Positions 4 to 38,666 of a stretch of 38,666 nt of DNA are shown one piece after another. Positions within the stretch are counted from its first letter, which is position 1, and the number at the start of each line of letters is the position of its first letter. A program made the translations under genes and the position numbers. Origin of the DNA: a virus (lineage: Duplodnaviria > Heunggongvirae > Uroviricota > Caudoviricetes); IMG/VR virus record IMGVR_UViG_3300045988_147970. One strand, 5' to 3'. The notes below the pieces were generated by a model. It was given only the letters and a program-made list of their open reading frames with translations. It was not told the origin of the DNA and did not search any database.

Positions 4-231
4 TTATAAAGAACCTGAGCAGACAGCGGAGAAGTTTGTGCTATATCCTATTTTAGATACGGCCTCTGCGTATGTATAAGCAATGATAGGTTTATTTACC
101 GCTGAGGCTGGATCTTCTAACTGATTAACAGGAGCTGTACCAAATGCGACAATCAACCCAGCACTAACTTGTACTGGAGGAGTTATAGATGTAGCCAGCT
201 CAGATATATAAATACCGTGGCGATATCCCAT
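4..231 (-). CDS. tail sheath protein, 5-prime portion (N-terminal ~67 codons); gene continues at 37350..38666 if the window ends are joined
   Basis: N-terminus MGYRHGIYISE... resembles contractile sheath N-termini. Codons at 31..84 are identical to 38613..38666 and in frame with the sheath ORF at the other end; codons 4..30 (SAVCSGSL-stop) are junction-derived. Confidence 0.5.
   Translation of the reverse strand: MGYRHGIYISELATSITPPVQVSAGLIVAFGTAPVNQLEDPASAVNKPIIAYTYAEAVSKIGYSTNFSAVCSGSL
31..84. repeat. 54-bp exact direct repeat, copy 1 (copy 2 at 38613..38666)
   Basis: Identical 54-mer GAAGTTTGTGCTATATCCTATTTTAGATACGGCCTCTGCGTATGTATAAGCAAT at both ends; flanking bases differ (1..30 versus 38583..38612). 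Confidence 0.85.
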
Positions 232-5829: not shown

Positions 5830-6065
5830 AAATCTCTTATCACCACTCGTTTAATTCGTGGGCCTCGGCGTATACCTGCTGATAATCTTTCTACTTCATT
5901 ACGCCAGTAATCCATCTCTTTTCTGACTTCTGATAAATCCGCACGAGTTAACTGCCGCGTACCAAATTTATATGACTGACCGCCAATAGCAATAGCGCGA
6001 TATGCTTCCCGCCAGACAGATAACATCTCTCTGGCTTCAGTCAGAGAAAATGCTTCATTGTTCAT
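5826..6065 (-). CDS. head-to-tail joining protein gpW-like
   Basis: 79 aa between large terminase and portal as in lambda; C-terminal RRGP motif shared with lambda gpW. Confidence 0.6.
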   Translation of the reverse strand: MNNEAFSLTEAREMLSVWREAYRAIAIGGQSYKFGTRQLTRADLSEVRKEMDYWRNEVERLSAGIRRGPRIKRVVIRDL

Positions 6066-7938: not shown

Positions 7939-8499
7939 TTATTCTTCCTGCTTAATAAATCGGGATTCCTGGAGCGCCTGAAGCGCAAAATTAATCTCGT
8001 CTTCAATAATGCGTTCGATCTCCCTGGCTGTTTTGCCTTCACAACGGGGAGCTGCTCTTGGAGCAATACTAAATAAGCGGCTACGCAATTCATTAGCTGC
8101 CAGAAATGCATCATCCCTGACCGCATCTTTAGCGATGAGAGAGCCTTCCTTTTCTTCAAATTCAAGGCGTTTCAGCTTTGCCTGATAAATTTTTTCTGCG
8201 GTCTTAGCCTTGTTGAATTGCACCGCAACACCGGAAGTACCACCAGCTAATCCGGCATCATCAGCGGGTAACTCTGGTTGTTCCGAAGATATCCCATGCC
8301 CTCTTTTTCCATTTTCAGCAGATACCTCACGACCAACCTGTCGGCTCGCTTCATAAGCCGCACTGGCTTTATCAAAATCCAGCTTGCCGCTTTTCAGCAC
8401 TGGAATGCGACCGGAACGACAGAGCTTCGTAACCATTGCCGGAGAAATACCTTTCCGGCGAGCAAACTCTGACTTACTGACGATGGCCATTACTTGCAA
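7939..8499 (-). CDS. terminase small subunit (Nu1-like, N-terminal HTH)
   Basis: 186 aa directly upstream of the large terminase; N-terminal helix-turn-helix-like segment (SKSEFARRKGISPAMVTKL). Confidence 0.6.
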   Translation of the reverse strand: MQVMAIVSKSEFARRKGISPAMVTKLCRSGRIPVLKSGKLDFDKASAAYEASRQVGREVSAENGKRGHGISSEQPELPADDAGLAGGTSGVAVQFNKAKTAEKIYQAKLKRLEFEEKEGSLIAKDAVRDDAFLAANELRSRLFSIAPRAAPRCEGKTAREIERIIEDEINFALQALQESRFIKQEE

Positions 8500-9080
8500 C
8501 CATTAGCAAGATACTGAACAAATCCCTCATGCGTTTCATGCGCGTCGTGGTACTGACGATAAACATCCAGCAACAATGCAATTTCCATATCCGTCGCGGG
8601 AATACGTTCTTTATCAATAGCCAGGTACTTAATTTGAACAACAGGGGAAGAATTATCGTCTTCTTCCTGCGGCTGTTCATCGCTTAACATTTCGTCAAGC
8701 TCTGCATCATTAAACCCAAGCAGATCAATATCAAAATCATCATCCATTAACTCTTTGACTTCTTCGGCCAGAAGCTGCATATCCCAGCCAGCATTTAAGG
8801 CCAGCTTGTTATCTGCAATCCTGTAAGCCTTCTTCTGTTTTTCAGAAAGGTTACTCAACCGAATCGCCGGAACTTTATCCATTTCCAGAATTTCGGCTGC
8901 TGCAAGCCGACCATGCCCCGCAATCAGTTCATTCTTTTCATCGATCAGCACAGGATTAGTGAAACCGAACTCACGGATACTGTTCACCAACTGTTCAACC
9001 TGCTCATCTGAATGAGTCCGTGAATTTTTGGCGTATCTGAGCAGCTTACCGACTGGTAAATATTCGATTTTTAGAGCCAT
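8490..9080 (-). CDS. ParB-like nuclease domain (ParB/Srx N-terminal domain) protein
   Basis: 196 aa with ParB N-domain box (LIAGHGRLAAA); stop overlaps the small terminase start; paralog of 11747..12370. Confidence 0.7.
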   Translation of the reverse strand: MALKIEYLPVGKLLRYAKNSRTHSDEQVEQLVNSIREFGFTNPVLIDEKNELIAGHGRLAAAEILEMDKVPAIRLSNLSEKQKKAYRIADNKLALNAGWDMQLLAEEVKELMDDDFDIDLLGFNDAELDEMLSDEQPQEEDDNSSPVVQIKYLAIDKERIPATDMEIALLLDVYRQYHDAHETHEGFVQYLANGCK

Positions 9081-9637
9081 TTTTTAACCGCCATAACACA
9101 ACAGGTTAAAGAAAACTGTTTAACTTATTGATACTAAAAGAGAAAAATGACGATCTTTTTACTCATAAAAAATCACACAAACCAGCATAATCATCTGATT
9201 TTATTAAGTTTTTATAAGTAAAAAGGATCTTGAGATGGTGTTTTGGTTAAAAGATTGGATGTATTTGCATGATTTATAACGATTTTTATCAGAACAACAT
9301 CACATTGGTTAAAGATCTGCGCGTATCTTGATGATCTAAAAGAAAATTTTCTACTTTCTTTTTACCAGCACAAATACAGCAAAAAATCACGTTTTCCCGA
9401 TATTTTTCAATGAGATGAGTAAATTTCTTTTACCGCAACTTTTAACCTAACTTTTTTCACGTTTAGCTAGCCGAACATCGGGGTTCGAATGACCCGCATC
9501 CAACGCTTTTGTCCAGAAGGACCCAATTCTGCCGGACGATGAAACGATGCTCGTGCACCCCCACAGACAGCCAGCGAGCGACGCTACAGAACACAGTGAA
9601 TACACTCTGCATAACAACACCATCAACCACACGATGA

Positions 9638-10373: not shown

Positions 10374-11753
10374 CTACTTAATCAACGGCCGGAAAGCCGC
10401 CAGCACATCATCAGATCGTCCGATTGTTGAACCACCAGGCAACGGCAACTCAAACTCAAAACGAACAGCTTTCTCCAGACTCGCCCAACTAAGGGAATCA
10501 TCGTTAATGACGTGCAAATACCAGCTCTTACAGTTGAATATTGACCGCTTAATCCTGAAACCATGTACACGACACAACTGCTTCACTTCCTCATCAGAGT
10601 GAAACTTCTGGTAAAACCAGTGCCCCTTCCGGTACAACGCGGTAAAACCGTCATGATCAATAAAATAAAGCCGGCTTTTGGAACTCGCCGCTTGTGTTTG
10701 CTTCAGGACTGTTTCCAGTTCTCCACGGCTACGGCCAGAAAAGAATATTGACCCACCAGCTTTACACAGGCCTTTCAGAACCGTCAGAACGGACCATTCA
10801 GCCTCGACACTATCGACCGAGTTCAAAACGCTATCGCAAATCACGTAGTCGTAACGCCCTCGCGTTTTTAAGTCGTCCACCAGCGTATCAATCATCCGGT
10901 TTGTTGCGGCCCTATCCAGAGTGTTTCCAGCGCCCTTACGGCGGAAAAGCTCGAGATCATGCAGGTTATATCCCTTTGCCCTGAGCATTCGCGCGTAGTC
11001 TCCCTGCCCCGAACCAAAATCAATTCCTCTTGGCGTCTTGGCAATGATCGGGAGGATCAACGACTCATACAGATTTGATTTCAGGCTGCCACCATTACGC
11101 AACCGCATAAGCTGCGCATACGTCTGGATGTATGTTGTTTTCTCCAGATGAGAATACTCAAATACACCATAAGTTTTATTCAGATAACTTTGGTATTTTT
11201 CCTTCTCAACATCAGGGATCACAAACACCGTTAGCGGTGTGCGCGTCATTTTCGCTGCTAATGCATACTGAGCACAGTGAATAACCTCACCAGACTGAGT
11301 AGCAACACAACCACCCCACGGACCATACTTGATAACCAGTTCCGCTATGTTCTTTCGAACATATGCCATTTTCGCGCGCATATTGCCTGAGATCTGGCTT
11401 GCCGATACCTGAACAAAACCATGCTTATCTTCCAGACCGGACACCCTGCAACGCTCATCTCCGCTATCAAAATCCGTTCCGTTATGCAGTTGGTTAAACC
11501 GTACTTCGTCGTATACCGTCGTTTCACAGGGCAACACATACACCGCAGCACGCGTTATTCCCAACTTACGTAGCGCCTTCGTCCTTTGGTGTCCCGCCAC
11601 CAGCAAATCGCCGCGCACTATCAATGGCTTCACAAGCCCCAGCTCCCTGACGCTTTCCGCCAGCCTCGCAAGATCATCCTCACCGATAAAACGCGGGTTA
11701 TATTCCGCGCCGCGTAGGTGCGTTATGTCGTAATTGAGGTGAAGCATCAGCAC
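10374..11753 (-). CDS. ParB-like N-terminal domain fused to a class I SAM-dependent methyltransferase domain
   Basis: N-terminus has a ParB box (LLVAGHQRTKALRKLG); C-terminal half has SAM-MTase motif I (IDFGSGQGDYARML), an acidic motif II (YDYVICDSV) and GGSIFFSG; 459 aa. Confidence 0.65.
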   Translation of the reverse strand: MLMLHLNYDITHLRGAEYNPRFIGEDDLARLAESVRELGLVKPLIVRGDLLVAGHQRTKALRKLGITRAAVYVLPCETTVYDEVRFNQLHNGTDFDSGDERCRVSGLEDKHGFVQVSASQISGNMRAKMAYVRKNIAELVIKYGPWGGCVATQSGEVIHCAQYALAAKMTRTPLTVFVIPDVEKEKYQSYLNKTYGVFEYSHLEKTTYIQTYAQLMRLRNGGSLKSNLYESLILPIIAKTPRGIDFGSGQGDYARMLRAKGYNLHDLELFRRKGAGNTLDRAATNRMIDTLVDDLKTRGRYDYVICDSVLNSVDSVEAEWSVLTVLKGLCKAGGSIFFSGRSRGELETVLKQTQAASSKSRLYFIDHDGFTALYRKGHWFYQKFHSDEEVKQLCRVHGFRIKRSIFNCKSWYLHVINDDSLSWASLEKAVRFEFELPLPGGSTIGRSDDVLAAFRPLIK

Positions 11754-12370
11754 ACCTCCCCAGCCAGCAATGCGGATACAAATCCGATATAGCTGCCATT
11801 ATCATCAACATAACGAGACACCGCGCAGTCAAAACGATCCGCTTCCTCATCCGTTGCCGGGATTTTATGACCTCCAAATGACAGGTACTGAACTTTTACG
11901 CCTGATTTGGCCTCATCCTTCTCAAATGGGATATCCATACCCTCTGTGTCATCGTAGACCGCCGCACTCAATAAGTTATCCAGTTCGCGCTGAGTAAAAC
12001 CAATTGAGTCCAGAGCAAAATCATCGGCCGCAAGATCTGCAAGCTCCGCGCTTAACAACTCTTCATCCCAACCAGCATTCAGCGGAATACGGTTGTCGGC
12101 CAGACGATATGCCTTCTTCTGATTCTCCGTTAGCCCAGCCAGAACAATGCAGGGAACATCATCCATCCCCAACTGAGTGGCCGCAGCAATTCGACCATGA
12201 CCAGCAATTACAACGTTGTTCTCGTCTATCAGGATCGGATTAGTCCATCCGTACTCCTGTATGCTGGCAACAATCTGATCTACCTGCTCCACGGAGTGTG
12301 TGCGAGCGTTCTTTTCATAACCAATCAACACAGAAAGTGGTAAAGAAACCACATTAAGATGTTTTGTCAT
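11747..12370 (-). CDS. ParB-like nuclease domain protein (paralog of 8490..9080)
   Basis: 207 aa; ParB box (VIAGHGRIAAA); similar along its length to the 196-aa ParB-like protein, including the C-terminal KIPATDEE region. Confidence 0.7.
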   Translation of the reverse strand: MTKHLNVVSLPLSVLIGYEKNARTHSVEQVDQIVASIQEYGWTNPILIDENNVVIAGHGRIAAATQLGMDDVPCIVLAGLTENQKKAYRLADNRIPLNAGWDEELLSAELADLAADDFALDSIGFTQRELDNLLSAAVYDDTEGMDIPFEKDEAKSGVKVQYLSFGGHKIPATDEEADRFDCAVSRYVDDNGSYIGFVSALLAGEVC

Positions 12371-13978: not shown

Positions 13979-14244
13979 TCATCATCTCCTGCCGCACATA
14001 CAACCTCACAAAAAACATCAGCGGAATGTTTCTTTTTGAATGAATGGCGCTCAAAACCGCACTCAATATCAGGCGCAAAAACATCCACCACATACGGTCT
14101 TTCAGAATGTTTGTTTTCCCAACGATAAACCGTAGTGACGTTGAAATGTTTTAACGCTTCACGGTACTCAACGCTGCCCGTCAGGTTTTTTGAGGTCAGG
14201 TATTGCAGGAGGTTTTTTACTACTTCACGGTCTTGTACTTTCAT
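13975..14244 (-). CDS. hypothetical protein, first gene after a duplicated operator-bearing promoter module
   Basis: 89-aa ORF; GGAG RBS; preceded by the ~104-bp module that is duplicated upstream of the DUF3560-like gene. Confidence 0.35.
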   Translation of the reverse strand: MKVQDREVVKNLLQYLTSKNLTGSVEYREALKHFNVTTVYRWENKHSERPYVVDVFAPDIECGFERHSFKKKHSADVFCEVVCAAGDDE

Positions 14245-14251
14245 CGGGTTA

Positions 14252-14355
14252 TCTCCGGTTTAACCAGGGCGGGTATCGCTCGGTTTCGGGTATAATCATA
14301 GGAAATTTTTTCCCACCTGCAAAGCACTTTTTATATAAATATATAATTATATAAT
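14252..14355. repeat. ~104-bp duplicated promoter-leader module, copy A (copy B at 21832..21935)
   Basis: ~93% identical to 21832..21935; each copy sits directly upstream of a minus-strand gene start and carries the AGGAAA-N3-TTTCC operator-like motif and AT-rich TATATAA repeats. Confidence 0.6.
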
Positions 14356-14356
14356 T

Positions 14357-14944
14357 CTATGCCACTTGCCAGAGAGCATCATGCAACTGGATACCTCCAT
14401 TGCACTGGTTGCCCCAGCCATGCCAACCATCAGGTAAATCACCGCGAGCAAACAGCTCAATACGAGGAACATCACCTAACAGCCTTACCAGCTTGTCACG
14501 AACCACATCAGGCTTCCGAGAATGCTCCAGACGAGGCGATGTAAACGACTGAATGATCCCCGCATCAAGGCGGGTCGGCAATTTGCCTTTTACCGCAAAC
14601 AAGCAATCTTCACTGTTTGCACGAGTCATATGCCCCATCCCCATCACCAGCTTATCTGGTTGTCGGCTACCACATTTGTTCCATGTGAAGCCCTTCATGG
14701 TCATAAGCCTGAATCCCCATGCTTTCACCACCAGCAACGCTTCTTCTGGCTGAGTCGGAACCCACCACATGGCCAACAAACACGATTCAGGATTAGCAAG
14801 CTGCCAGACAGGAATACGAGCAATATCCTCAGCTTTCATCGTTGGATACTTAAAACCAGCTCCACGATTCCCATCCTTACACTTATCTTTGTATTCCCAG
14901 GGGGGATCTGCATAAATCAGATTAAACAATGCAATTGCCTCCAT
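14357..14944 (-). CDS. N6-adenine DNA methyltransferase, MT-A70 family
   Basis: N-terminal IYADPPWEY (DPPW catalytic motif) is the MT-A70 signature; 195 aa. Confidence 0.8.
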   Translation of the reverse strand: MEAIALFNLIYADPPWEYKDKCKDGNRGAGFKYPTMKAEDIARIPVWQLANPESCLLAMWWVPTQPEEALLVVKAWGFRLMTMKGFTWNKCGSRQPDKLVMGMGHMTRANSEDCLFAVKGKLPTRLDAGIIQSFTSPRLEHSRKPDVVRDKLVRLLGDVPRIELFARGDLPDGWHGWGNQCNGGIQLHDALWQVA

Positions 14945-15010
14945 GTTAGTTGTGCCTCCGGCGCTGATCTCCGGCAGTCATAACGCTGGCCAGCTCTACA
15001 GCAGACACAA

Positions 15011-15043
15011 CGAAAAGGGCACTAACCAGACTGATTAATGCCC
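15011..15043 (-). terminator. possible terminator downstream of the tRNA
   Basis: Minus-strand hairpin GGGCAUUAA...UUAGUGCCC (one U-G wobble) followed by a U-rich tract; approximate. Confidence 0.3.
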
Positions 15044-15252
15044 TTGCCTGTTGTGTGCCGGATATCGCCCGACAACGCTGTTTTGGTAACACGGCTACAG
15101 TTCCGTGCCGCTCCAGCTTTTACCCCTTTGCGGATAACAGGCCCTGCCTGTAACTTAGCCCCACGTTCGCCCGAAATGCGCACCAGGCACGCATAAAGAT
15201 GAGCACGAAGGAAGTAACTCCACCGCGCTTATCTTTATGTGTGAGAGTGAAT

Positions 15253-15328
15253 TGGTGGCCCCTACCGGATTTGAACCGATGACCGTGCGATTATGAGTCG
15301 CCTGCTCTAACCACTGAGCTAAGGGGCC
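15253..15328 (-). tRNA. tRNA with anticodon CAU, ileX-like (tRNA-Ile2 or Met); 3-prime CCA encoded
   Basis: Reverse complement GGCCCCTTAGCTCAGTGGTTAGAGCAGGCGACTCATAATCGCACGGTCATCGGTTCAAATCCGGTAGGGGCCACCA folds as a cloverleaf; the first ~42 nt match my recollection of E. coli ileX. Confidence 0.85.
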
Positions 15329-15497
15329 ATATTTGATCTGTTTGTCTGGTGTGGCGCCGCGCACGAAAATCCCAGCCAATAAATTCAGGATTTTTGGGCG
15401 CGGCGGCATATCAGACAAACATGGTTGATGCGTGCGCCCATGAGAAAAGCGCATAGAATGTTGTAACTATATATTTATATAATTATAGAAATATATA

Positions 15498-15707
15498 TTA
15501 CTTTCGGCAGTTGATTTCCCATGCCCTGTTATGAGCCAGAATATCTTTCTTTGTCTGGCGGTCCATAACATCGATGTCGTGATCAGTCAGGTAGATGGGC
15601 TTTACCCAATCACAGGCGGTATCAACCACCACCGGGACGCTTCCACGACTCCCGCAGCTCGCGATCAACATCGTCATCAGCCATATGGTTAACACTCTGC
15701 TGTACAT
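15498..15707 (-). CDS. o-spanin (Rz1-like outer-membrane lipoprotein)
   Basis: 69 aa with lipobox LIASC; reading frame overlaps the 3-prime end of the i-spanin gene. Confidence 0.55.
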   Translation of the reverse strand: MYSRVLTIWLMTMLIASCGSRGSVPVVVDTACDWVKPIYLTDHDIDVMDRQTKKDILAHNRAWEINCRK

Positions 15708-15900
15708 TCCCCACCTCTTTTGTCACTTCTATACGCCGCTCCGCAGTGGCTTTTACAGCGGCTGCATTCTCATTAATGCGCTGCTTTTCAGCTTCATCTT
15801 CGGCCTTTTCTCGCCCCTTCATACGACCAAAACCAAACGCACCGAATGCAACCAATATAACGGTGCCGATAAATGACAAAACGGCTTTCAAACCAGTCAT
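15622..15900 (-). CDS. i-spanin (Rz-like)
   Basis: 92 aa, N-terminal TM helix then charged coiled-coil; immediately downstream of the endolysin. Confidence 0.55.
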   Translation of the reverse strand: MTGLKAVLSFIGTVILVAFGAFGFGRMKGREKAEDEAEKQRINENAAAVKATAERRIEVTKEVGNVQQSVNHMADDDVDRELRESWKRPGGG

Positions 15901-16439
15901 ACCACCACTCGCTCTTTCATCCAGCCGTAGACAAACGACTCATTAGCCTCGCGCTTCTCCGCCAGCTCCAGATAGCGTTCGCCCTGCGTACAGTTCAGCG
16001 ACGTCAGCATCACCCGTTCGCCGTCTTTTCCCCGATTCCCAAGATAAGCACGTAGCGCATTAATGGTACGTGGACCGATTCGTCCGTCTGCATCCAAATC
16101 GGGATACAGCTTCCCGCGCAGGTTGAACACATTCAGCCAGCGTTGAAGCATTTTTGACGCCACTGTTGGCCCCATGTTCACCCCCGTGTCACACAGCTCT
16201 GCGGCAATATCAGAGGATAATGCGGCCACCTGATCAAAGCGTGGTCCGTACCAGTAATCAGCCTCAAGGATTTCCAGTGCCTGTTCGCGGGTTAAATCGC
16301 GCATATCGCCACGGTATCCATGAGCACGGGCAGTGTTCTGAGTAATGCCCCACTTTGTTGGGCCTCCCTTGTCGTCAGGGTGATCCACATAGCCGCCCTC
16401 TTTTCCAAGAACGCTGTTAAAAATCTCATCTTTGGTCAT
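15897..16439 (-). CDS. endolysin, GH108 muramidase with C-terminal peptidoglycan-binding domain
   Basis: N-terminus EGGYVDHPDDKGGPTKWGIT is the GH108 signature; 180 aa; follows the holin genes. Confidence 0.8.
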   Translation of the reverse strand: MTKDEIFNSVLGKEGGYVDHPDDKGGPTKWGITQNTARAHGYRGDMRDLTREQALEILEADYWYGPRFDQVAALSSDIAAELCDTGVNMGPTVASKMLQRWLNVFNLRGKLYPDLDADGRIGPRTINALRAYLGNRGKDGERVMLTSLNCTQGERYLELAEKREANESFVYGWMKERVVV

Positions 16440-19376: not shown

Positions 19377-20031
19377 TTACCCATACCCACGGGTTAGATA
19401 GCCAGTTCTCTTGCCCGTAAATACCGCGCCAGATATCACCAAAGCCAACGCGATAAACAGCTTCCGGTGGCGTAATTTTGTACGTCGCCGGAAATGCGCC
19501 TTCCGCTTTCGCATCTGCCTCGCTAATGTCATGCAGCCGTTCCACACGCACGTCGGTAATTTCCAGAAGAATGCGTGATGCCCATCGCGGCATGTGAATT
19601 GATGGACACCACCCGCCATCAAACTTTTCATTCACAGTGTGAGGTTTCCAGTCGGCATCATCGGGTATCGACCACAGGCCGTAATCACCAGGCTTTTGCT
19701 CGCAACTGGCCCGATAAATCCTTGCTGCGTTCTTCTCATCGCCACGACAAAGGTTGTCGTTCCAGTCCACACTGCAACCATCCTCATTGCCTAATATCGC
19801 CCACGCTTCACGGACCCATATGCGATCACCAACGTTACCGAACGGGCATAAACCATGTTCAGGTGCATCCATAACGTGGGTATAGACACCATTGCGTTTC
19901 TTTGTCGGTTTACGGATAACCAGGCAGTTATCGGCCCTGACATTTTTTACAGGTCGGCGAGTCTGCGTCTTCCTTCCTTCGAGGATGGCCCTGACCATCG
20001 CATCATTAAAAATCATGCCGCGCTCTTTCAT
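19339..20031 (-). CDS. ASCH-domain-like protein
   Basis: Start at MKERGMIF; AILEGRKTQTRR resembles the ASCH GxKTxTxR motif (as in E. coli YqfB) and C-terminal WVIEFK resembles the YqfB C-terminus. Confidence 0.45.
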   Translation of the reverse strand: MKERGMIFNDAMVRAILEGRKTQTRRPVKNVRADNCLVIRKPTKKRNGVYTHVMDAPEHGLCPFGNVGDRIWVREAWAILGNEDGCSVDWNDNLCRGDEKNAARIYRASCEQKPGDYGLWSIPDDADWKPHTVNEKFDGGWCPSIHMPRWASRILLEITDVRVERLHDISEADAKAEGAFPATYKITPPEAVYRVGFGDIWRGIYGQENWLSNPWVWVIEFKRIQGATSE

Positions 20032-20036
20032 CTTGC

Positions 20037-20402
20037 TCACTTCAACTCCTCCCGACGACGTTCCTGAAGCTCTAGCATTGCGGCTCGGAAATCCTGCCAC
20101 CATTCCTCATCTGCAACGGGGGTGTTTCGCTCCAGCACCTTGTCCGCATCAGCGATCAGGTTTGCCAGACTCTTGTCTGAAATCTTCGTTACCGGAGTCG
20201 TTGGTTGCTCAACCTGCCCGATAGGTTTTATCGTGCTCAAAAGGAGGCGACGGCTGGAAAGTGGCGACCCACAACGGCGCCCATCTTCCTTGCGATATGT
20301 TTCTTTCGGACCAACACACCAGGTTGTCGGCGTTTCGCGTAACTTCACTTTTTTCTCACCATCAATGGTGATGATTATTCCGGTATGGGTTTTGATGCTC
20401 AT
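20037..20402 (-). CDS. hypothetical protein
   Basis: 121-aa ORF in the operon. Confidence 0.3.
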   Translation of the reverse strand: MSIKTHTGIIITIDGEKKVKLRETPTTWCVGPKETYRKEDGRRCGSPLSSRRLLLSTIKPIGQVEQPTTPVTKISDKSLANLIADADKVLERNTPVADEEWWQDFRAAMLELQERRREELK

Positions 20403-20680
20403 GCCACAGCCCCTCTCAACGGCTTAACTTTGGCTAATAAGGTGTTAAACAACATGGAGTTAGGATTCATGCCAAATGGCAATTCCGGTTTAGCGGAGTA
20501 GTACAGGCAACCATTTATTTTCCTGGTTGTTATCTGTCCTTCGGCAACCATGCTTCTCAGTCTGCAACGCATAGAGTTCTGCGACACACCAATGTGCTCC
20601 GCGATTACGTCCACTTTTGAACATGGGTGATCGGTCAGGAAATTAATCACATCTTGGGGGTTAATAATTTTGCGTTTCAT
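20399..20680 (-). CDS. small putative winged-helix DNA-binding protein
   Basis: 93 aa; VDVIAEHIGVSQNSMRCRLRSMVAEGQI resembles a wHTH recognition region; AT-rich promoter-like sequence upstream. Confidence 0.3.
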   Translation of the reverse strand: MKRKIINPQDVINFLTDHPCSKVDVIAEHIGVSQNSMRCRLRSMVAEGQITTRKINGCLYYSAKPELPFGMNPNSMLFNTLLAKVKPLRGAVA

Positions 20681-20757
20681 TGTCGAGGCGTCCTTATAAA
20701 TTTATATAAATATATAATTCTATATAAGGCGGGAGACATCCCGCCGTAGGCTTACTG

Positions 20758-21825
20758 TCAGGCTTTCAATAGCGATTCTTTCAGATATCGGGCATCAGCC
20801 AGGGCGTTTGGAGTAATCTTGCGAACCCATGCATTACGGGTTGGACTCCACTTAAAGGCGCGTGATTTAAGCAGCGAACGAATGTTTGCCTCTGGTTTGC
20901 CTGGGAAATAAAACAGGATGCGGTTATCCTCTGGATCTATCTCCATAGAAAAGCCGTCGTATTCTTCGCGCTGTGCTCCTGTTACAGACTTGACCGATTC
21001 AAGCTCCTTAATACGGCTCTGTAGTCGTTTGATTTCGGCGTTATTGTTGCTCAGTGCGTATGAAGGGAATCCGATGTGCCCACAGAAATCTCCGGCCAGT
21101 AACTCTTTGGCTTCGCTTTCTGTAAACCTGAGATCGATTAATGCAGAAAGCTGCTGTAATTGGTCTTTTTTGTATTTGCGAATGGCCTTATTTGCGGCCT
21201 TCATTTTGACGTGTGACTTCATGCAGCCTTGCAGCTTACGAAGCAACTTAAATAGCGCATCAGGATCATCAGACGAAATTCCATTACGACCAACACCTGC
21301 GGCTTTGCTCTCGTAGTGTGATGCTTTACTTTCGCATTCAACAAACGCTTTTCTTAATAACGCATCAGCTTTAGACAAACGGCGGCGATGGCCTTTCGCG
21401 CTATAATGGTCAACTAAAATCGGCTGGCCTAACGGGATCACATCCAACAGGTCATGCGCTCGCTTATGCGCTACCGCACCTTCTTTTCTGGCTTTTTCTG
21501 CACGAGCAATATATCGGGCAAGACGCGCGTTCTGGCGTTCCTGATAGGTGTTTACGTAATCATCTCCGCGCTGCTGCTGTTCAAGCCATGCTTTGCGCAG
21601 ATCTTCTGTTACGTCCACCAGCTCCGCAGGGATACAACCAGTTTGGGCTTCATAAGAGTAACCATCCTCATAGATACGCCCATCATCTTCAACAAAGAAA
21701 AAGGTTTCGTGCTCATCGCTTTTGACCATACGACCATTAACATGGCGTAATAGGTAGCCAGTATCAGTGCTTAACAAGCTGTTAGGGTTGTTGATCCAGT
21801 CAGAAATAATTACTTGTTTATTCAT
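20758..21825 (-). CDS. DUF3560-like protein with N-terminal extension
   Basis: Start at MNKQVII (residue 51 of the track ORF) with GGAG RBS; motifs GQPILVDHYSAKGHRRR, SSDDPDALFKL, KAANKAI, DFCGHIGFPSYALSNNNAEIKR, FKWS match my recollection of DUF3560. Confidence 0.5.
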   Translation of the reverse strand: MNKQVIISDWINNPNSLLSTDTGYLLRHVNGRMVKSDEHETFFFVEDDGRIYEDGYSYEAQTGCIPAELVDVTEDLRKAWLEQQQRGDDYVNTYQERQNARLARYIARAEKARKEGAVAHKRAHDLLDVIPLGQPILVDHYSAKGHRRRLSKADALLRKAFVECESKASHYESKAAGVGRNGISSDDPDALFKLLRKLQGCMKSHVKMKAANKAIRKYKKDQLQQLSALIDLRFTESEAKELLAGDFCGHIGFPSYALSNNNAEIKRLQSRIKELESVKSVTGAQREEYDGFSMEIDPEDNRILFYFPGKPEANIRSLLKSRAFKWSPTRNAWVRKITPNALADARYLKESLLKA

Positions 21826-21831
21826 CAGATT

Positions 21832-21935
21832 TCTCCGGTTTAACCAGGGCGGGTATCGCTCGGTTTCGGGTATAACCTTAGGAAATTTTTTCCCACCCGT
21901 AAAGCACTTTTTATATAAATCTATAATTATATAAA
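21832..21935. repeat. ~104-bp duplicated promoter-leader module, copy B
   Basis: See copy A; upstream of the DUF3560-like gene start at 21825. Confidence 0.6.
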
Positions 21936-22018
21936 TAATAGTGACTGGTGCTTTTTTAGGCTGCACATTAAACATTTTTGTTTAGCTTATTGGCAAGGTC
22001 TTGAAAAAGACATTTCAG

Positions 22019-22034
22019 CAATGGTATACCATTG
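22019..22034. promoter_or_regulatory. 16-bp perfect palindrome CAATGGTATACCATTG, operator-like
   Basis: Lies ~60 bp upstream of the plus-strand regulator start in the divergent intergenic region; overlaps a -35-like TTGAAC. Confidence 0.5.
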
Positions 22035-22091
22035 AACATGGTATCGGCTGAATTTTACAATTAACACATTTTAAACAATTGGAGGTGCCAA

Positions 22092-22376
22092 ATGGCTAAA
22101 CCAAAATCTGAAATTGATGCTATTCGAGCATTAACAGAAGTAACAATTAAAGGTTTTGAGCAGGTTGCTCAGGCATTAGTTGATATGAGAGAAGCTCAGG
22201 GAAAAGTCGCACGAGCAACATATAATGGATTAACCTCCTCAGGAAAATCTCGCTATGTTGCATCGCTAGTAGAGGAAGTAGGATCACAAGCTGAAGTAAG
22301 CCGCATGTTAAATATCACACCTGGGCGCGTTAGCCAGCTTATGAAGTCCGAAAAAAACCGCAAAAATGGTAAGTAA
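22092..22376 (+). CDS. putative DNA-binding regulator; the only convincing plus-strand gene
   Basis: 94 aa; GGAGGTG RBS 5 nt upstream; C-terminal HTH-like SQAEVSRMLNITPGRVSQLMK; 16-bp perfect palindrome in its promoter region. Confidence 0.45.
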   Translation: MAKPKSEIDAIRALTEVTIKGFEQVAQALVDMREAQGKVARATYNGLTSSGKSRYVASLVEEVGSQAEVSRMLNITPGRVSQLMKSEKNRKNGK

Positions 22377-22380
22377 ATAA

Positions 22381-22403
22381 GTAAGGCCCCAATGGGGCCT
22401 TAC
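22381..22403. terminator. bidirectional rho-independent terminator between convergent genes
   Basis: Near-perfect hairpin GTAAGGCCCC-AAT-GGGGCCTTAC flanked by A/T-rich sequence on both sides. Confidence 0.6.
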
Positions 22404-22409
22404 ATTATG

Positions 22410-22709
22410 TTAGACATGGAACGCTACTCGCTTTCCTGTAGGAAGCTCAACATCCAGGCTTAATTTGCCTCCCATAGCTTCAACGTAACGCTTTAATGTC
22501 GCCAGCTTTAAATCATTTCCGCGCTGCTCCAGCTTTGTTACTGCTGGCTGGCTTATACCCATCGCCTCAGCAACCTGTTTTTGTGATAACTGGAGTTCTT
22601 CACGCATCATCTGCAAGCCGACCTCAAGAATCATCTCATCTGCCATTTCTTTAATTCGCGCCTGGCTTTCAGGTGAACGGCTGGCAATCACCTCATCTAA
22701 TGTTCTCAT
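22410..22709 (-). CDS. HTH XRE-family antitoxin (HigA-like)
   Basis: 99 aa; HTH QKQVAEAMGISQPAVTKLEQ; start overlaps the toxin stop by 1 nt (ATGA). Confidence 0.65.
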   Translation of the reverse strand: MRTLDEVIASRSPESQARIKEMADEMILEVGLQMMREELQLSQKQVAEAMGISQPAVTKLEQRGNDLKLATLKRYVEAMGGKLSLDVELPTGKRVAFHV

Positions 22710-23056
22710 TACTTGCTCTCCAGTGTGTTCAGATGTGCTGCAAACTCATCCTCAGCTATACGCACCAGTTTTTTATAAAACCGCTTATCGTTACTTTTGT
22801 CTCCTGCACAAAGAACGATGGCCCGACGAATCGGATCGAACGCATAAAAGGCTCTTATCGGACGGCCAGAAAACTGAACGCGAAGCTCTTTCATATTTTT
22901 GTACCGAGAACCTTTTACGGTATCGGCATATGGCCTGGGTAACTCAGGTCCGTAAACCTGTAGATTTTTCAAATCAGCCAAAACCTTTTCCTGAAGAGCC
23001 TCTTCTTGCTCATTTAGCCAGTCGTCAAATCGCTGGCTAAAAAGTACCGTCCACAT
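22709..23056 (-). CDS. RelE/HigB-superfamily toxin, phage Gp49-like
   Basis: Start at MWTV with AGGA RBS; ADTVKGSRYKNMKELRV...AFYAFDPIRRAIVLCAGDK...KRFYKKLVRIAEDEF matches the Gp49-like toxin pattern. Confidence 0.65.
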   Translation of the reverse strand: MWTVLFSQRFDDWLNEQEEALQEKVLADLKNLQVYGPELPRPYADTVKGSRYKNMKELRVQFSGRPIRAFYAFDPIRRAIVLCAGDKSNDKRFYKKLVRIAEDEFAAHLNTLESK

Positions 23057-23300
23057 GCTCAATCCTATAACCTGTAGTTTATACCACTGACTATATAACC
23101 CGTAGGTTATAATTTCAAGAAAAACGGGGCTATTTAACATAATGGACGTTATCGGCACCACCGGATCACCGTTCATTGTCGGATCTAAAAAATCCGCTCA
23201 AAAGATCATGTTTTCCTGGGCGTTTTCCACCGTTTTTTATGTTGCTTATTTGTTAATGAAATCTCGTTTTCAGTTTCGCCTCATTTTCGACGCGAAAGCC

Positions 23301-23591
23301 CTATTTTTGTGACTTTACTCCTGGCATATGGACTTCCCAGCGACGAATCCCCATAGCTGCGCAAAAATCAGCCACATAATTCAATCCCGCCCATTCGCGG
23401 ATACCACCACGGGCTTTTTCAATGAAAACGGCAATCCCTTTTTTATTGAGAGCAAAAAGCCGCCAGCTTTTTGTCACTTCGTCCTGGGTAGCCACAACAC
23501 AAGTGAAAGCTCCCATGCGATACAGGTCCAAGAACTCTTTGCGTGTTTTGCGTACAAGTTCCATAACAAACCTCATATTTGCATGTTTCAA
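23301..23591 (-). CDS. hypothetical protein
   Basis: 96-aa ORF whose start overlaps the stop of the upstream HTH gene. Confidence 0.3.
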   Translation of the reverse strand: MKHANMRFVMELVRKTRKEFLDLYRMGAFTCVVATQDEVTKSWRLFALNKKGIAVFIEKARGGIREWAGLNYVADFCAAMGIRRWEVHMPGVKSQK

Positions 23592-23887
23592 ACATCTGTT
23601 TTGTTATCAATGAAGATTAACCCTAACCCAGCGAAGTAACACAGCAGCGCCCAGGCTGCATACGGAATGCTGGATCTGGATGTGGACTCCTTTAACATCT
23701 GCCAGTTGCGAACATTGCGACTATCTTTTAAGCCTAGTTTTTTGGCTAACTGCGAGCCGCTCATTCCGGTCAGGCCAATGACTGCCCGAACTTCTCCACA
23801 TGTAGGAGATTCCCATTCATCCGCTTTTTTTAAACAAGCCGGATTCAACATTTTTAAAACAGTATCTTTATCCATAACCATCTCCAT
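23588..23887 (-). CDS. XRE-like HTH protein with C-terminal hydrophobic segment
   Basis: HTH-like GMSGSQLAKKLGLKDSRNVRNWQ; C-terminal IPYAAWALLCYFAGLGLIFI; palindrome AGGAAA-N3-TTTCCT just upstream of the start. Confidence 0.4.
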   Translation of the reverse strand: MEMVMDKDTVLKMLNPACLKKADEWESPTCGEVRAVIGLTGMSGSQLAKKLGLKDSRNVRNWQMLKESTSRSSIPYAAWALLCYFAGLGLIFIDNKTDV

Positions 23888-23906
23888 TTATTATATCTAC
23901 GATGGT

Positions 23907-23921
23907 AGGAAATCTTTTCCT
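23907..23921. promoter_or_regulatory. operator-like perfect inverted repeat AGGAAA-TCT-TTTCCT
   Basis: Perfect 6-bp inverted repeat with 3-bp spacer ~20 bp upstream of the HTH gene start; near-identical copies at 14300..14314 and 21880..21894. Confidence 0.5.
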
Positions 23922-24368
23922 ATGTGGCAATAGAAATTTACTACATTGCGTATAAGACAAGTTTTCTATGTCTAATAGGAAATGATGTTTCTTACATTTT
24001 ATCGCGTTCTGATGGCTACTGTGTGCGTATTTATCGACGTTTATTGATAAGGCTCGCCCCTTCCTCCTGCAAAGCCCGGCCGTAGGCCTTATTTCGGCCT
24101 TATATAAATTGATTTTGTATAGTTCGAAACGTGCCGTTTCGAAAAGGATGATCAGGCTGCTCCATGCCTCCGGCAAGTGCCGGAGGAGGTATATTTGAGC
24201 GTAGCGACTCGAACCGGCGCGAGCTTTAGCTCGCTGCAAGGGCGAACATATTCACAGGCAAAGCCTGTGTAAGTTAAATAAAGAAAGTCTTAATAAAAGA
24301 AAGTGATTTTGCATTTATTTGTTTAGTGCATCTATTATAAAAAACCATTTGCATATACATATCAGAAC

Positions 24369-24377
24369 TGTGGATAA
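24369..24377. promoter_or_regulatory. DnaA box (TGTGGATAA) within candidate oriR
   Basis: Perfect 9-mer consensus ~145 bp downstream of the repA stop in an AT-rich stretch. Confidence 0.5.
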
Positions 24378-24518
24378 CTTTATTAGCCGATGCCTGTAAA
24401 GGCGATATTTTTGCTGTGTTCAGGTTTAGAGAAAATTAATTTAGATTGTTTTTTGAACAGATATTTTATTGCGACGTAGATAATCCTCCGGTAAAACCGG
24501 ATTCATCATTCAGGTGGG

Positions 24519-25367
24519 TTAATGTTGGAGTGATTTCCAGGTCTTTCTTAACCTGTTATAACGCTGCTCAACGAGGGATCGTAAATATGCAAGGTCAGCA
24601 CCAGGATACATGCCATCAGCAAATTCCTGACTAACCTCTCTGGTGATTTGATGACGAAGTTCGGCCTCTCCCTTTTCCCGAACAAGACGCGCAGCTCTCT
24701 CCGCTGCTTTCTGTTTTGCCTTTATCTCTCTGGCCGTCTTCCTCTGACGCCATACATTCTCCATCTGCTCCTGAATAACAATACGCTTATAATCAGCCTC
24801 CGTTATCGCTTTTTTAAGCCGTTCGCTATTCTTCGCATTGAAGTAATTAAGTTTCTGGCTAACCGCACGTCTCCATGCTTGTTCAGTAATACCAACGGTT
24901 TCCAGCAGTTGATCACGAATCTCTATTTTCGCTGGCCAATACTGTTTATTCACCCGATCCCAGCGACGTTCATAATCAATAAAACCTAACGCTTTCAGTT
25001 GCGACAACGCCCTTGTACAGCGCGTTATAGACTTGTTCCCAGCTTCGGATACGGTAGACAGGCCGCAAAAATCAGCCAACGCCTCAGCACTAGCCAGAAC
25101 CCGCTTAGAAATGATGTTTACATGGTGCAAAATCGCAGCGATCACAGCATTAATCGCCCGACGACGATGCTCGTTTATCCGGCGCTTCCGCTCTGACGGT
25201 TGATTAACGTAGAACGCAACCTCACACGTAAGATCACGCCCATTAATGCGCTGTAAAGCATCAGATAACACCAGCGGCAGCTTGTGCGTATGGTGCTTTG
25301 GAGGCTGGAACTCCGGCGACAAATTACAAACGTAAGCTGAACGTAGAGACGGCATTGGTCTATCCAT
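24519..25367 (-). CDS. repA: replication initiator RepA, IncFII RepA1 family
   Basis: AINAVIAAILHHVNIISKRVLASAEALADFCGLSTVSEAGNKSITRCTRALSQLKALGFIDYE aligns with my recollection of R100 RepA1. Start set at MDRP; the track ORF extends 44 codons further upstream in frame. Confidence 0.8.
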   Translation of the reverse strand: MDRPMPSLRSAYVCNLSPEFQPPKHHTHKLPLVLSDALQRINGRDLTCEVAFYVNQPSERKRRINEHRRRAINAVIAAILHHVNIISKRVLASAEALADFCGLSTVSEAGNKSITRCTRALSQLKALGFIDYERRWDRVNKQYWPAKIEIRDQLLETVGITEQAWRRAVSQKLNYFNAKNSERLKKAITEADYKRIVIQEQMENVWRQRKTAREIKAKQKAAERAARLVREKGEAELRHQITREVSQEFADGMYPGADLAYLRSLVEQRYNRLRKTWKSLQH

Positions 25368-25382
25368 ATGTTCGCTCTTGCG

Positions 25383-25495
25383 TCCACGGAAAACCAACGT
25401 ATAATGGGAGTTGTCGAGGCGCCCATGGATTGTTGTTGTTGGTTTTCCGTGGATGTCGCAAGAAGCCCGCAGATTTATCTGCGGGCTTTTTGTTT
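25383..25495 (+). ncRNA. candidate CopA-like antisense RNA opposite the repA leader
   Basis: 16-bp perfect inverted repeat (25383..25398 with 25438..25453) followed by hairpin AGCCCGCAGA-TTTA-TCTGCGGGCT and a T-run on the plus strand; boundaries inferred. Confidence 0.4.
25464..25495 (+). terminator. rho-independent terminator on the plus strand, antisense to the repA leader
   Basis: Perfect 10-bp stem with 4-nt loop followed by TTTTTGTTT. Confidence 0.55.
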
Positions 25496-25862
25496 CCATA
25501 TCTGGTCACTTTCCAACCAGACACCCACAATCATAACCACGTTACGTGGTTTTAAGAGAACTCTACCACAACACTTTCGGTCATGCACGAAGTCTCTCAC
25601 TGATCGAACGATAATCCACCAGTAAAAGGATCTAAATTGGATCTCGTTTTGCGAGCATCATACTACTGGCCTAACTCCAGTCAATGATTCCCAGCCAGAA
25701 ACCTGCGGTAAACTCATCGTTCAGCAATATGCTGTCCGGCTTCAAAGATAAGGTGACATCATCCCTTAACAGCGCGGCCAGCTCCGTTAAAGGGTTGTTT
25801 TGACTTAATGCAAAACCGCTAATAAACATATTGGCGGTTTTGTTCCTTAAATCATCTTGCCT

Positions 25863-26438
25863 TTACACTAATTCTGGCCATTCGATATCAGGGGCATTTT
25901 CCGGCTGAACGCGATTCAGTAGCACACGGTATTTTTTCCAGTGTGTCAGGCTTAACTTTTCTTCCTCGGTAGCCATATCTAAATCGACAGCATCCTGCAG
26001 AGTGGCAATAATTTCACCTGCATATGCAATCAGCTCTTTCTTCTGAGAGTCAGCCGCTCTGACAAGCGCATCACGCTCTGCATTCTCATCATTCACCCAC
26101 GCATTGCCGTTCCATTTCTGATAATCCCCCTCCGGGGAAATGGCTGTCACGTCTGGAGGTAATACGCCAAGTTCAGAAATATAAATGGCTGCTCCCGTTT
26201 TCGTTTCATAGACGGTCTTTCCGCGATGGTCTTCCATCAGTTCCCATTTCATTTCATCTGCATTGAAAACGGCTGCATAACCCGCCGGAATATCAGGCGG
26301 TGCAATATCTGTACTGTTTGCAGGCAGGCCAGTATACGGTGGGATATATGCGTCACTTTCGCCAATAAATTCATTGGTTCCATCAAGTAAATTGAAAACG
26401 CGGATAGTTTGTGCTTCTGCACTCATTCTGAAAGCCAT
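25863..26438 (-). CDS. tail fiber assembly protein
   Basis: 191 aa immediately downstream of the tail fiber gene with overlapping stop/start; pattern typical of Tfa chaperones. Confidence 0.7.
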
Positions 26439-37349: not shown

Positions 37350-38666
37350 TTATTCAGAAAACAAGTTCAGCAGATAATCAGGATTATATTCCATGACGAA
37401 CTCTATATCTCTGGCAGGTGAGAATGGTGTCATTTTTACATGGAATTTAACAATCCCGTCCATCAATGACGTAATCGTGTTTTCAGACTGATCAAAGGTA
37501 ACAACACCACCTGCAATATCCTGATTACCAGTGAGGCCGTTAAGCCAAATATTCGCACTAGTAACAATCGATTCAATTAATCGACGGTTTGCAGGATTGT
37601 CTATTTTTGACCAATGCGAAAGAATTAACGTATTACCCACCCAGTTAAACATACGTCGGCAAACACGAAATGCGTCTTTGGGGTCTGTAGATGTTGGATA
37701 AATAGCATTACGGTTTCCCCATGATTTCCAACCATCAAAATTAAGGCTTGTTACAATCCCCTGTCCATTTAAGTAGTTTGCCTGGCTAATGTTAAGCCAT
37801 ACCTCACTGCCATCTTTACGTACAGCACCGTCCATCTGTAGTTTTATATTTGACGGAGAACGTGATGGAATATCATCATACTGACTATCCAGCAAGCATG
37901 TTGCTGCAGCTAAATGGGTTGAGTGATGGTAAATATTGTCACCAAGTTTCACCATCGGCCAGCACACTGTCTGGTTAGCTGCCATATGATTATTGTTCTG
38001 CTTCCATTCAGGAACAGCAGAATAATCACTGATAGTAGATTTATCAGTCGGCGCATCGGTGATAGCTTCTGCTTTGAACAATTCACTAATCAGCGCAGCT
38101 TTAGCCGCCATTAGCTGGCCAACTTCACTATCAGAACTAAATCCAGGCGCAATCACTTGTCCAGGAACCAACTTGAAGCGGGGATACACATCAGACAGTA
38201 ACTCAAGCCCTGTATTGGCTTTAGTGTTGGAATCCACACCACCGATAATGTCATTTTTAGTTACGGCACCGGGATCAAGATGCGTATAACTAACCTTAAG
38301 AGTAGCGTCTTTTTCGGTAATTTTTCCTCCGCTAATAGCGGTAATGACCGTATAGCCATTATCATCCAGCGCCAGCACATAATCGGTGTCAACCGTTAAT
38401 CCTGCCGAATCACCATCTGCTTTTTTCACAACAACAGATTTATATAAGACACCATCGTTAGAGAGCGTACCTTTCCCGCCAGAAAGTTTTACTACCTCAT
38501 CAGGTACGTCTTTCTTATGCTTTGCTGGATCAAGCACATTAATAAATACAACTGGCGCAACACCATATATTCCAAATGCGACTTTAATTACTTCGCTTAA
38601 AGTATATTTCTCGAAGTTTGTGCTATATCCTATTTTAGATACGGCCTCTGCGTATGTATAAGCAAT
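37350..38666 (-). CDS. tail sheath protein, 3-prime major portion (reading frame open to the window end)
   Basis: Track ORF 37350..38537 plus 43 in-frame codons to 38666; the first 18 of these are the 54-bp repeat also at 31..84, linking to the N-terminal fragment at 4..231; immediately upstream of the tube gene. Confidence 0.8.
   Translation of the reverse strand: MAYTYAEAVSKIGYSTNFEKYTLSEVIKVAFGIYGVAPVVFINVLDPAKHKKDVPDEVVKLSGGKGTLSNDGVLYKSVVVKKADGDSAGLTVDTDYVLALDDNGYTVITAISGGKITEKDATLKVSYTHLDPGAVTKNDIIGGVDSNTKANTGLELLSDVYPRFKLVPGQVIAPGFSSDSEVGQLMAAKAALISELFKAEAITDAPTDKSTISDYSAVPEWKQNNNHMAANQTVCWPMVKLGDNIYHHSTHLAAATCLLDSQYDDIPSRSPSNIKLQMDGAVRKDGSEVWLNISQANYLNGQGIVTSLNFDGWKSWGNRNAIYPTSTDPKDAFRVCRRMFNWVGNTLILSHWSKIDNPANRRLIESIVTSANIWLNGLTGNQDIAGGVVTFDQSENTITSLMDGIVKFHVKMTPFSPARDIEFVMEYNPDYLLNLFSE
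38613..38666. repeat. 54-bp exact direct repeat, copy 2 (ends exactly at the window end)
   Basis: See copy 1 at 31..84. Confidence 0.85.

Follow-up and report, generated by a model that had tools for sequence, protein, structure and literature searches.

Restriction-modification controller (C) proteins are small helix-turn-helix (HTH) proteins of the Xre-type five-helix fold, co-transcribed with a restriction gene, and two tandem dyad operators 5' of their own gene, the proximal one over the −35 element, place that gene under feedback control. KorA (TrfB; PDB 2W7N), which represses genes globally on IncP-1 plasmids, carries its HTH at the N-terminus and a domain for dimerization and interaction with KorB at the C-terminus, and its Gln53 makes crucial base contacts in the KorA-operator complex (PMC2665229). 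Here we analyze the gene for a 94-amino-acid (aa) protein at 22092..22376 on the plus strand of IMG/VR record IMGVR_UViG_3300045988_147970, a 38,666-nucleotide stretch of Caudoviricetes DNA (hereafter the window), which an initial annotation had proposed as a candidate decision module. In our best reading, the gene encodes a solitary autoregulated HTH protein of a small, uncharacterized mobile-element family, and the region 21935-22419 is, judged by comparison with its relatives, a portable monocistronic cassette of plasmid type that is optional in a group of phage-plasmids.

The cassette, which consists of operator, promoter, gene, and terminator on the plus strand (21935..22419), is delimited by homology to the phage-plasmid of ATCC 25922, which stops at 21934 and restarts at 22420. 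In place of these 485 bp the ATCC 25922 phage-plasmid has 63 bp with a terminator, and it keeps both the HigBA pair and the XRE operon. The cassette is absent from about 36 of 62 related phage-plasmids and is carried by only 23 of about 62. Searching 72,556 plasmids with tblastn, we found a homologue encoded by only 30, namely these 23 phage-plasmids, three cfr plasmids, two 110-kb IncI-like plasmids of Serratia, one 5-kb plasmid of Rahnella, and one 141-kb plasmid of Thauera. The three cfr plasmids are conjugative, 28 kb in size, and carry the cassette together with HigBA between IS26 and a ParA gene. In one of them, the 28.5-kb plasmid L023 (NZ_CP037908.1), positions 1379-2623 comprise the cassette, HigBA, and a remnant of the AT-rich leader of the phage-plasmid that is cut off by IS26, which shows that a resistance plasmid has captured phage-plasmid DNA. 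Further homologues occur on a Pseudomonas element with integrase and type IV secretion system (T4SS) genes, in plasmid or integrative and conjugative element contexts, and in assemblies and metagenomes of diverse Gamma- and Betaproteobacteria. The family is tiny: a search of 1.84 billion proteins at E ≤ 1e-3 yielded 30 representatives. Across 36 loci no neighboring gene is conserved; the neighbors include integrases, transposases, T4SS genes, toxin-antitoxin (TA) genes including CcdB, restriction-modification genes, and AAA_21 ATPases.

The gene itself is preceded by a Shine-Dalgarno sequence, GGAGGTG (22081..22087, plus strand; 6 nt from GGAGG to ATG), and followed by a bidirectional stem-loop terminator with a 10-bp stem (22381..22403) that it has in common with the convergent higA. 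The open reading frame (ORF) and its strong ribosome-binding site were thus correctly recognized at the outset, as was its standing as the only convincing plus-strand gene: when plus-strand ORFs of at least 90 aa were compared with the minus-strand ORFs that they overlap, PHROGs matches in the nine other pairs fell to the minus-strand member only, leaving the 94-aa gene as the sole supported plus-strand gene of the window. Its product matches PHROG 15590 (annotated function unknown) along residues 1-94 of 94 (E = 9.4e-64), and no Pfam family matches it above the cut-off. Scores remain below the family cut-offs for YdaS (PF15943; 21 bits vs. 30), Sigma70_r4 (19.9 vs. 24.1 bits), TIGR02937 (19 vs. 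42.9), and P22_Cro (13 vs. 30.2 bits), placing the protein in none of these families.

The C-terminal HTH-like segment that had been noticed in the sequence alone gains its support from structure prediction, the Pfam HTH matches being weak. An AlphaFold2 model built on a 13-sequence alignment (mean predicted local distance difference test score, pLDDT, 91.9) has helices at residues 5-45 (41 residues), 49-63, 66-73, and 77-91, that is, a long N-terminal helix and a C-terminal three-helix domain that has the HTH in its last two helices. Searches of PDB and BFVD with Foldseek returned only generic HTH matches, all with E > 0.09, PDB sequence and profile searches gave only spurious ESAT-6 and P-loop matches, PADLOC, which covers known anti-phage defense components, gave no match, and literature searches on the protein accessions, the PHROG identifier, and the phage-plasmid group retrieved nothing specific. 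The most conserved stretch of the family is an invariant G-x-T-x-S-G-K-S-R-Y at residues 46-55 (window 22227-22256). Within it, GLTSSGKS fits the Walker A-like pattern GxxxxGKS, and weak GTPase matches were obtained (E about 0.8-0.9). A P-loop NTPase was rejected, since the model is all-helical and the motif forms the loop between helix 1 and helix 2; in this model the loop might contact the DNA backbone or a partner protein.

Upstream of the gene lies an operator-like inverted repeat, TTAAAC-ATTTTT-GTTTAG (21968..21985), which is the probable binding site of the 94-aa protein. The corresponding family element, (C)TAAAC-N6-GTTTA(G), is present in all compared upstream regions of diverged homologues, and the same motif stands 5' of homologues in more than 25 diverged loci. 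In the window, 21968-21985 is the sole 10/10 match to TAAAC-N6-GTTTA in 38.7 kb, a match of this quality being found in 3.5% of simulated windows, and it is invariant in five phage-plasmid relatives and kept on the cfr plasmid. Sites that score 8/10 or better are concentrated 5' of the genes, with 14 in 1,010 nt there and 55 in 98,061 nt elsewhere. Among 32 non-redundant upstream regions, a comparison that includes 26 added metagenomic loci, 21 have a pair of operator copies at a distance of exactly 23 bp whose scores sum to 16/20 or more; among 1,289 control windows, 0.23% reach 16 and none reaches 17. In distant relatives the proximal copy runs into the −35 hexamer, TTTACA or TTGACA (as GTTTACA or GTTGACA), with a −10 element recognizable 17 nt further on in several loci. 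Photobacterium combines changed half-sites, TTAAC/ATTAAG in three copies, with PG>AP where the recognition helix begins, a covariation that lends modest support to the operator.

No further high-quality operator site was found on the element. A 9/10 match, TAAAGAAAACTGTTTA, occurs at 9107-9122, inside a 380-bp intergenic region and 27 nt 5' of the terminase operon, whose first gene encodes the ParB-like nuclease; this is at chance level (1.8 such sites are expected per window). On the Serratia plasmid L003, for which 100 kb of 110 kb were scanned for a regulon, the full site occurs only 5' of the homologue. There, at 5870-5915, the operator is flanked by extra TTTAGC/GCTAAA half-sites, including a palindrome, TTTAGCTAAA, that corresponds to the 12-bp IncP KorA operator at 10 positions and occurs once in the scanned 100 kb.

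Tandem repeats of this kind might also be centromere-like, in which case the 94-aa protein would be a small centromere-binding or partition protein comparable to the HTH of ParB and KorB. The half-site TTTAG(C) does resemble the KorA and KorB operators, and ParA genes lie within a few kilobases on the cfr and Serratia plasmids. However, ParA is not a conserved neighbor, the sites overlap the −35 elements of the homologues' own promoters, and the intact phage-plasmid encodes ParA and a small partner of its own at another place, and we consider a partition function very improbable.

The transcription signals of the window's gene point to a promoter, here called Pa, just downstream of the operator. 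Pa has a −35 element, TTGAAA, at 22001..22006, and after an 18-nt spacer an extended −10 element, TGgTATACC, at 22022..22030, both on the plus strand, which would place the transcription start near 22035-22038. The −35 element is invariant in six aligned alleles, including one in which the region of the −10 has a different sequence, and Serratia has TTGAAT at its position. In the divergent allele, TGaTAGCAT follows TTGAAA at the same 18-nt spacing, and the two promoter alleles have in common TTGAAA, the spacer length, and TGn, followed by TATACC or TAGCAT. A consensus scan also pointed to a second sigma70-like promoter on the same strand, Pb (22032..22061; TTGAAC, 18 nt, TACAAT, with its −10 at 22056-61), whose −10 reads TGTAAT, with loss of the −11 A, in three of the five close relatives. 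No regulatory RNA emerged from this region: an Rfam scan of 21000-26000 gave nothing relevant, and the predicted structure of the gene's 5' leader was not significant (z-score +0.26). A long-range 15-nt inverted repeat (21981-21995 / 22086-22100) was dropped as a candidate, as it is not conserved in Serratia or Rahnella.

Taken together, we consider it probable, though by a modest degree, that a dimer of the 94-aa protein binds 21968-21985 and autoregulates Pa. In this model, the protein would dimerize through its long N-terminal helix and place a C-terminal HTH of the sigma-4/KorA/ParB kind on each arm of the 18-bp inverted repeat TTAAAC-N6-GTTTAG just upstream of Pa, where the half-site centers are 11 bp apart, matching two successive major grooves, and the bound dimer would then autoregulate transcription from Pa. 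In relatives with two operators the proximal operator covers the −35 element, and therefore autorepression is the clear reading there.

Several observations weigh against this model for the window's own allele. The enterobacterial clade (E. coli, Serratia, Rahnella, and the locus L032) has one operator, which lies 12-25 bp upstream of the conserved TTGAA(A/T) and not over the −35. Autorepression is thus less obvious here, activation or no effect is possible, and the sign of regulation in this single-operator allele is uncertain. Further, the only detectable target of the putative regulator is itself, which leaves its biological role without an explanation. Pa has no −7 T in its −10 element (TATACC), and in the consensus scan Pb ranked above it. 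Finally, a perfect 16-bp palindrome, CAATGGTATACCATTG, occupies 22019..22034, that is, −73 to −58 from the ATG, exactly where distant homologues have their second, proximal operator, and the window contains four perfect palindromes of at least 16 bp (at 643, 1153, 1242, and 22019) vs. 0.77 expected, possibly reflecting some selection for dyads.

The palindrome was real as first described, and it might be a genuine operator, bound by the 94-aa protein in a second mode or by another repressor, that has replaced the proximal family operator and represses the gene, with the bound protein masking either the −10 and start of Pa or the −35 of Pb. Besides its position and the excess of long palindromes, this alternative is favored by the perfect dyad symmetry, by the overlap with core elements of both candidate promoters, and by a third half-site, CATGGTAT, at 22037..22044, which forms an inverted repeat with 7-nt arms with 22026-22032 and reads CATGGTGT in plasmid JE86_p3. 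However, the recognition helix is conserved, and yet the palindrome half-site CAATGGTA bears no relation to the family half-site, CTAAAC. The palindrome is single-copy in the window even at three mismatches and there is no candidate binder; a multi-copy operator was rejected, with one copy at up to four mismatches in the window, in 18 kb of an intact relative, and in 19 kb of the ATCC 25922 plasmid. HigA, suggested by the TGGTATA that the palindrome shares with the higBA promoter region, was likewise rejected as the binder, as a palindrome-free allele adjoins the same HigBA. Further, at least one palindrome of this length occurs in 55% of windows simulated with a Markov-1 model, and therefore the palindrome alone is not significant.

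Comparison of alleles points in the same direction. In the six-allele alignment the operator and TCTTGAAAA are invariant, and substitution density in the palindrome is similar to that in the surrounding spacer. In two of the five close relatives, plasmids of E. albertii and E. fergusonii, a G>C change (CAATGCTATACCATTG) falls on the free "n" of TGn, so that the dyad is lost while the promoter motif is unaffected. The cfr-plasmid allele and the phage-plasmid contig L029 have another sequence in place of the whole palindrome segment, and their proteins are 94-95% identical to that of the window. The two alleles share their promoter geometry, and therefore the palindrome core, TGGTATACC, is read as the extended −10 of Pa. 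We conclude that the palindrome belongs to one of two promoter alleles, in which it surrounds the extended −10 and the start of Pa, that it is not the family operator, and that an operator function for it is unlikely. The initial annotation was thus right to place the palindrome, with its dyad symmetry, in the promoter region of the gene, where it overlaps the core of Pa, and the probable key operator is the family element at 21968-21985, 35 bp upstream, the palindrome being mutated or absent in relatives. The other three long palindromes, a 22-bp ACGGCAAGGATATCCTTGCCGT at 1242-1263 and two of 16 bp at 643-658 and 1153-1168, lie elsewhere, and the excess suggests that some are functional, for example as terminators or operators in the head-gene region.

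On its downstream side the cassette faces a convergent pair for a HigB-like (Gp49/RelE) toxin and a HigA-like (HTH_3) antitoxin on the minus strand (22410..23056), and the 94-aa protein could be an accessory third component or regulator of this TA pair. The gene accompanies HigBA in phage-plasmids and reached the cfr plasmids along with it, the Rahnella and Serratia homologues have RelE/HTH and RES toxin genes nearby, a CcdB gene adjoins one metagenomic homologue, and TGGTATA is common to the palindrome and the higBA promoter region. However, HigBA is kept without the cassette in phage-plasmids of the ATCC 25922 type, most distant homologues have no TA neighbor, and the 94-aa gene has its own promoter and is convergent with higA, with a terminator between them. 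The pair also has control sequences of its own. A higBA-like promoter on the minus strand consists of TTGAAA (23118-23113), 17 nt, and TATAGT (23095-23090), and the dyad TATAACC-N4-GGTTATA (23111-23094), which lies over its spacer and −10, is probably the HigA operator; a second, partial dyad precedes the ATG at 23056. A role in the TA system appears quite improbable.

The genomic setting explains why the gene had looked like a switch. The neighboring genes, which include an IncFII-type RepA (24519-25499, minus strand), the HigBA-like pair, a DUF3560 operon, and terminase, tail, and lysis genes, identify a phage-plasmid, and megablast retrieved three "Yersinia phages" and about 62 Escherichia plasmids (46-50 kb) that match the region in part. 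In every relative, synteny with the window is lost at 21934. Direct alignment to the intact phage-plasmid NZ_LR130559.1 places window 20031-21933 at 3658-5560 and window 21822-24000 at 14148-16327, and the overlap of the two alignments is a 112-bp repeated leader with an AT-rich promoter element (21822..21934, minus strand), of which a second copy stands as a direct repeat at 14232-14354. From these alignments, the window is best described as an E. coli phage-plasmid of roughly 47 kb minus 8.6 kb between two 112-bp direct repeats, with the recombination junction in the leader; relative to NZ_LR130559.1 (47,288 bp against 38,666), 8,622 bp are missing between the two repeat copies. The 8.6 kb may have been lost in nature, giving a derivative that lacks immunity and partition genes, or may have dropped out when the assembly collapsed across the repeat.

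The 8.6-kb segment is present in all intact relatives, and in NZ_LR130559.1 it holds an early leftward operon with DUF1064 and Ref. Also encoded there are ParA with a small partner gene, an ORF6N/Rha (Ant-like) anti-repressor, and a 218-aa protein that contains HTH_3, matches S24 weakly, and hits both PHROG 4 ("transcriptional repressor") and PHROG 6201 ("CI-like"). The segment's leftward 126-aa/XRE operon, driven by the repeated leader, is the native divergent neighbor of the 94-aa gene, a gene order that also occurs in IMG/VR and metagenome contigs. By contrast, no second record with the window's DUF3560 junction was found in the plasmid, E. coli, IMG/VR, and metagenome sets. The apparent divergent space shared with the DUF3560-like operon is therefore a consequence of deletion or assembly collapse across the 112-bp repeat, in which the junction lies, and this claim does not survive. 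Similarly, the remark that no CI-like repressor is recognizable is true of the window but not of its intact relatives, because the CI-like gene sits in the missing 8.6 kb. The lysis/lysogeny module of this phage-plasmid group, with CI-like repressor, Ant-like anti-repressor, and ParA, resides in that segment.

The proposal that the 94-aa gene is a lysis/lysogeny or maintenance switch, operated through the palindrome in a control region from which the DUF3560 operon would diverge, has in its favor that an HTH protein is encoded by the sole plus-strand gene of a window without a CI-like gene, and that the 9/10 operator-like site at 9107-9122 precedes the operon of the ParB-like nuclease and terminase. 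However, that site is of a quality expected by chance, intact relatives hold the CI-like, Ant, and ParA module in the segment that the window lacks, and adjacency to DUF3560 is exclusive to the window. The distribution already contradicts a switch, since most related phage-plasmids lack the gene and ordinary, non-phage plasmids carry it. We regard such a role as extremely improbable, and prefer an optional cassette with an autoregulated gene.

Other features of the window were noted in passing. An AT-rich dyad, TTTATATAA-N8-TTATATAAA with the core TATAAATCTATAATTATATAAAT, occurs in four copies (21910-21939, 14330-14356, 15463-15497, and 20694-20727), each 5' of a leftward operon (DUF3560, the methyltransferase side, the lysis cassette, and a MarR-like gene), and two of the copies run on into a leader of about 112 nt with 91% identity; the element looks like a common phage promoter or an operator for some regulator. 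The predicted fold of the repeated leftward leader RNA was not significant (z-score −0.79). A ParB-like nuclease N-terminal domain is present in three separate genes (8490-9080, 10374-11753, and 11747-12370; PHROG 620 and 5475) that flank the terminase and a minor-tail gene, a multiplicity that is unusual for a 47-kb element. Close to each end of the window (31-60 and 38613-38642) stands an identical direct copy of a 30-nt sequence, GAAGTTTGTGCTATATCCTATTTTAGATAC, which could be another repeated promoter or regulatory box, or be related to the contig ends.

These results remove a false lead, as the missing CI and the lone divergent regulator both stem from the 8.6-kb deletion or assembly collapse, and they leave the understanding of lysis/lysogeny control in phage-plasmids unchanged. 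They define a small uncharacterized protein family without a Pfam entry, for which the operator CTAAAC-N6-GTTTAG, often in tandem at 23 bp, and the cassette structure should be useful in annotating plasmids and phage-plasmids. As a more speculative and improbable extension, the family might represent an undescribed class of solitary mobile-element regulators that combine C-protein-like dual-operator feedback with a KorA-like half-site and act in trans, with targets for instance in the chromosome of the host or in plasmids and phages that compete with the element, for cross-talk or exclusion; in the phage-plasmid, the protein might even damp the late operon of ParB-like nuclease and terminase via 9107-9122 as an optional stabilizer of the plasmid state.

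Comparison with better known regulators places the 94-aa protein near several systems and inside none. Compared to lambda CI/Cro, the locus likewise combines an HTH protein with dyad symmetry in the promoter region. However, it has neither a divergent repressor/Cro pair nor an array of related operators, the palindrome and the family operator both being single-copy; the 94-aa protein has no S24 domain or Cro fold, its gene is optional in the group, and the group's CI-like repressor is the separate 218-aa protein of the missing segment. The resemblance to the HTH of ParB/KorB and of sigma-70 region 4 is at the level of the fold only (6-27% identity), as there is no ParB N-terminal domain and no other sigma region, and the scores are below the cut-offs of these families. 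The regulatory layout of C proteins, with tandem operators and a proximal operator over the −35, recurs in 21 of 32 family loci and not in the window, whose allele is single-site. C proteins differ from the 94-aa protein in its combination of a long helix with a three-helix HTH and in its monocistronic gene, and a restriction-modification neighbor (XcyI/methylase) was found at one of the 23 surveyed loci and none in the window.

In the proposed model the 94-aa protein resembles KorA, which is also small (101 aa), dimeric, and plasmid-encoded and regulates its own expression through an HTH. The HTH segment of the 94-aa protein, LGLTRGAVSQAV, aligns with LNITPGRVSQLM of KorA, such that Q82 corresponds to KorA Gln53, and hhalign matched residues 65-85 to KorA 36-56 with a probability of 44% over 21 columns that cover the HTH only. 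The KorA operator, GTTTAGCTAAAC, contains the same hexamer half-site, CTAAAC/GTTTAG. By contrast, the half-sites of the 94-aa family are everted and 6 bp apart, KorA Arg48 aligns with Pro77, and in the AlphaFold2 model the domain order is reversed, with the long helix N-terminal and the HTH C-terminal, which sets the protein outside the KorA family. Consistent with this, Pfam KORA gave no match at E ≤ 0.1, and neither phmmer nor a profile search retrieved a KorA structure from PDB. KorA also acts through a 12-bp operator at several plasmid promoters, whereas one site per element was found here. Even with these differences, the 94-aa protein appears, by analogy, to work most like small plasmid autoregulators such as KorA.

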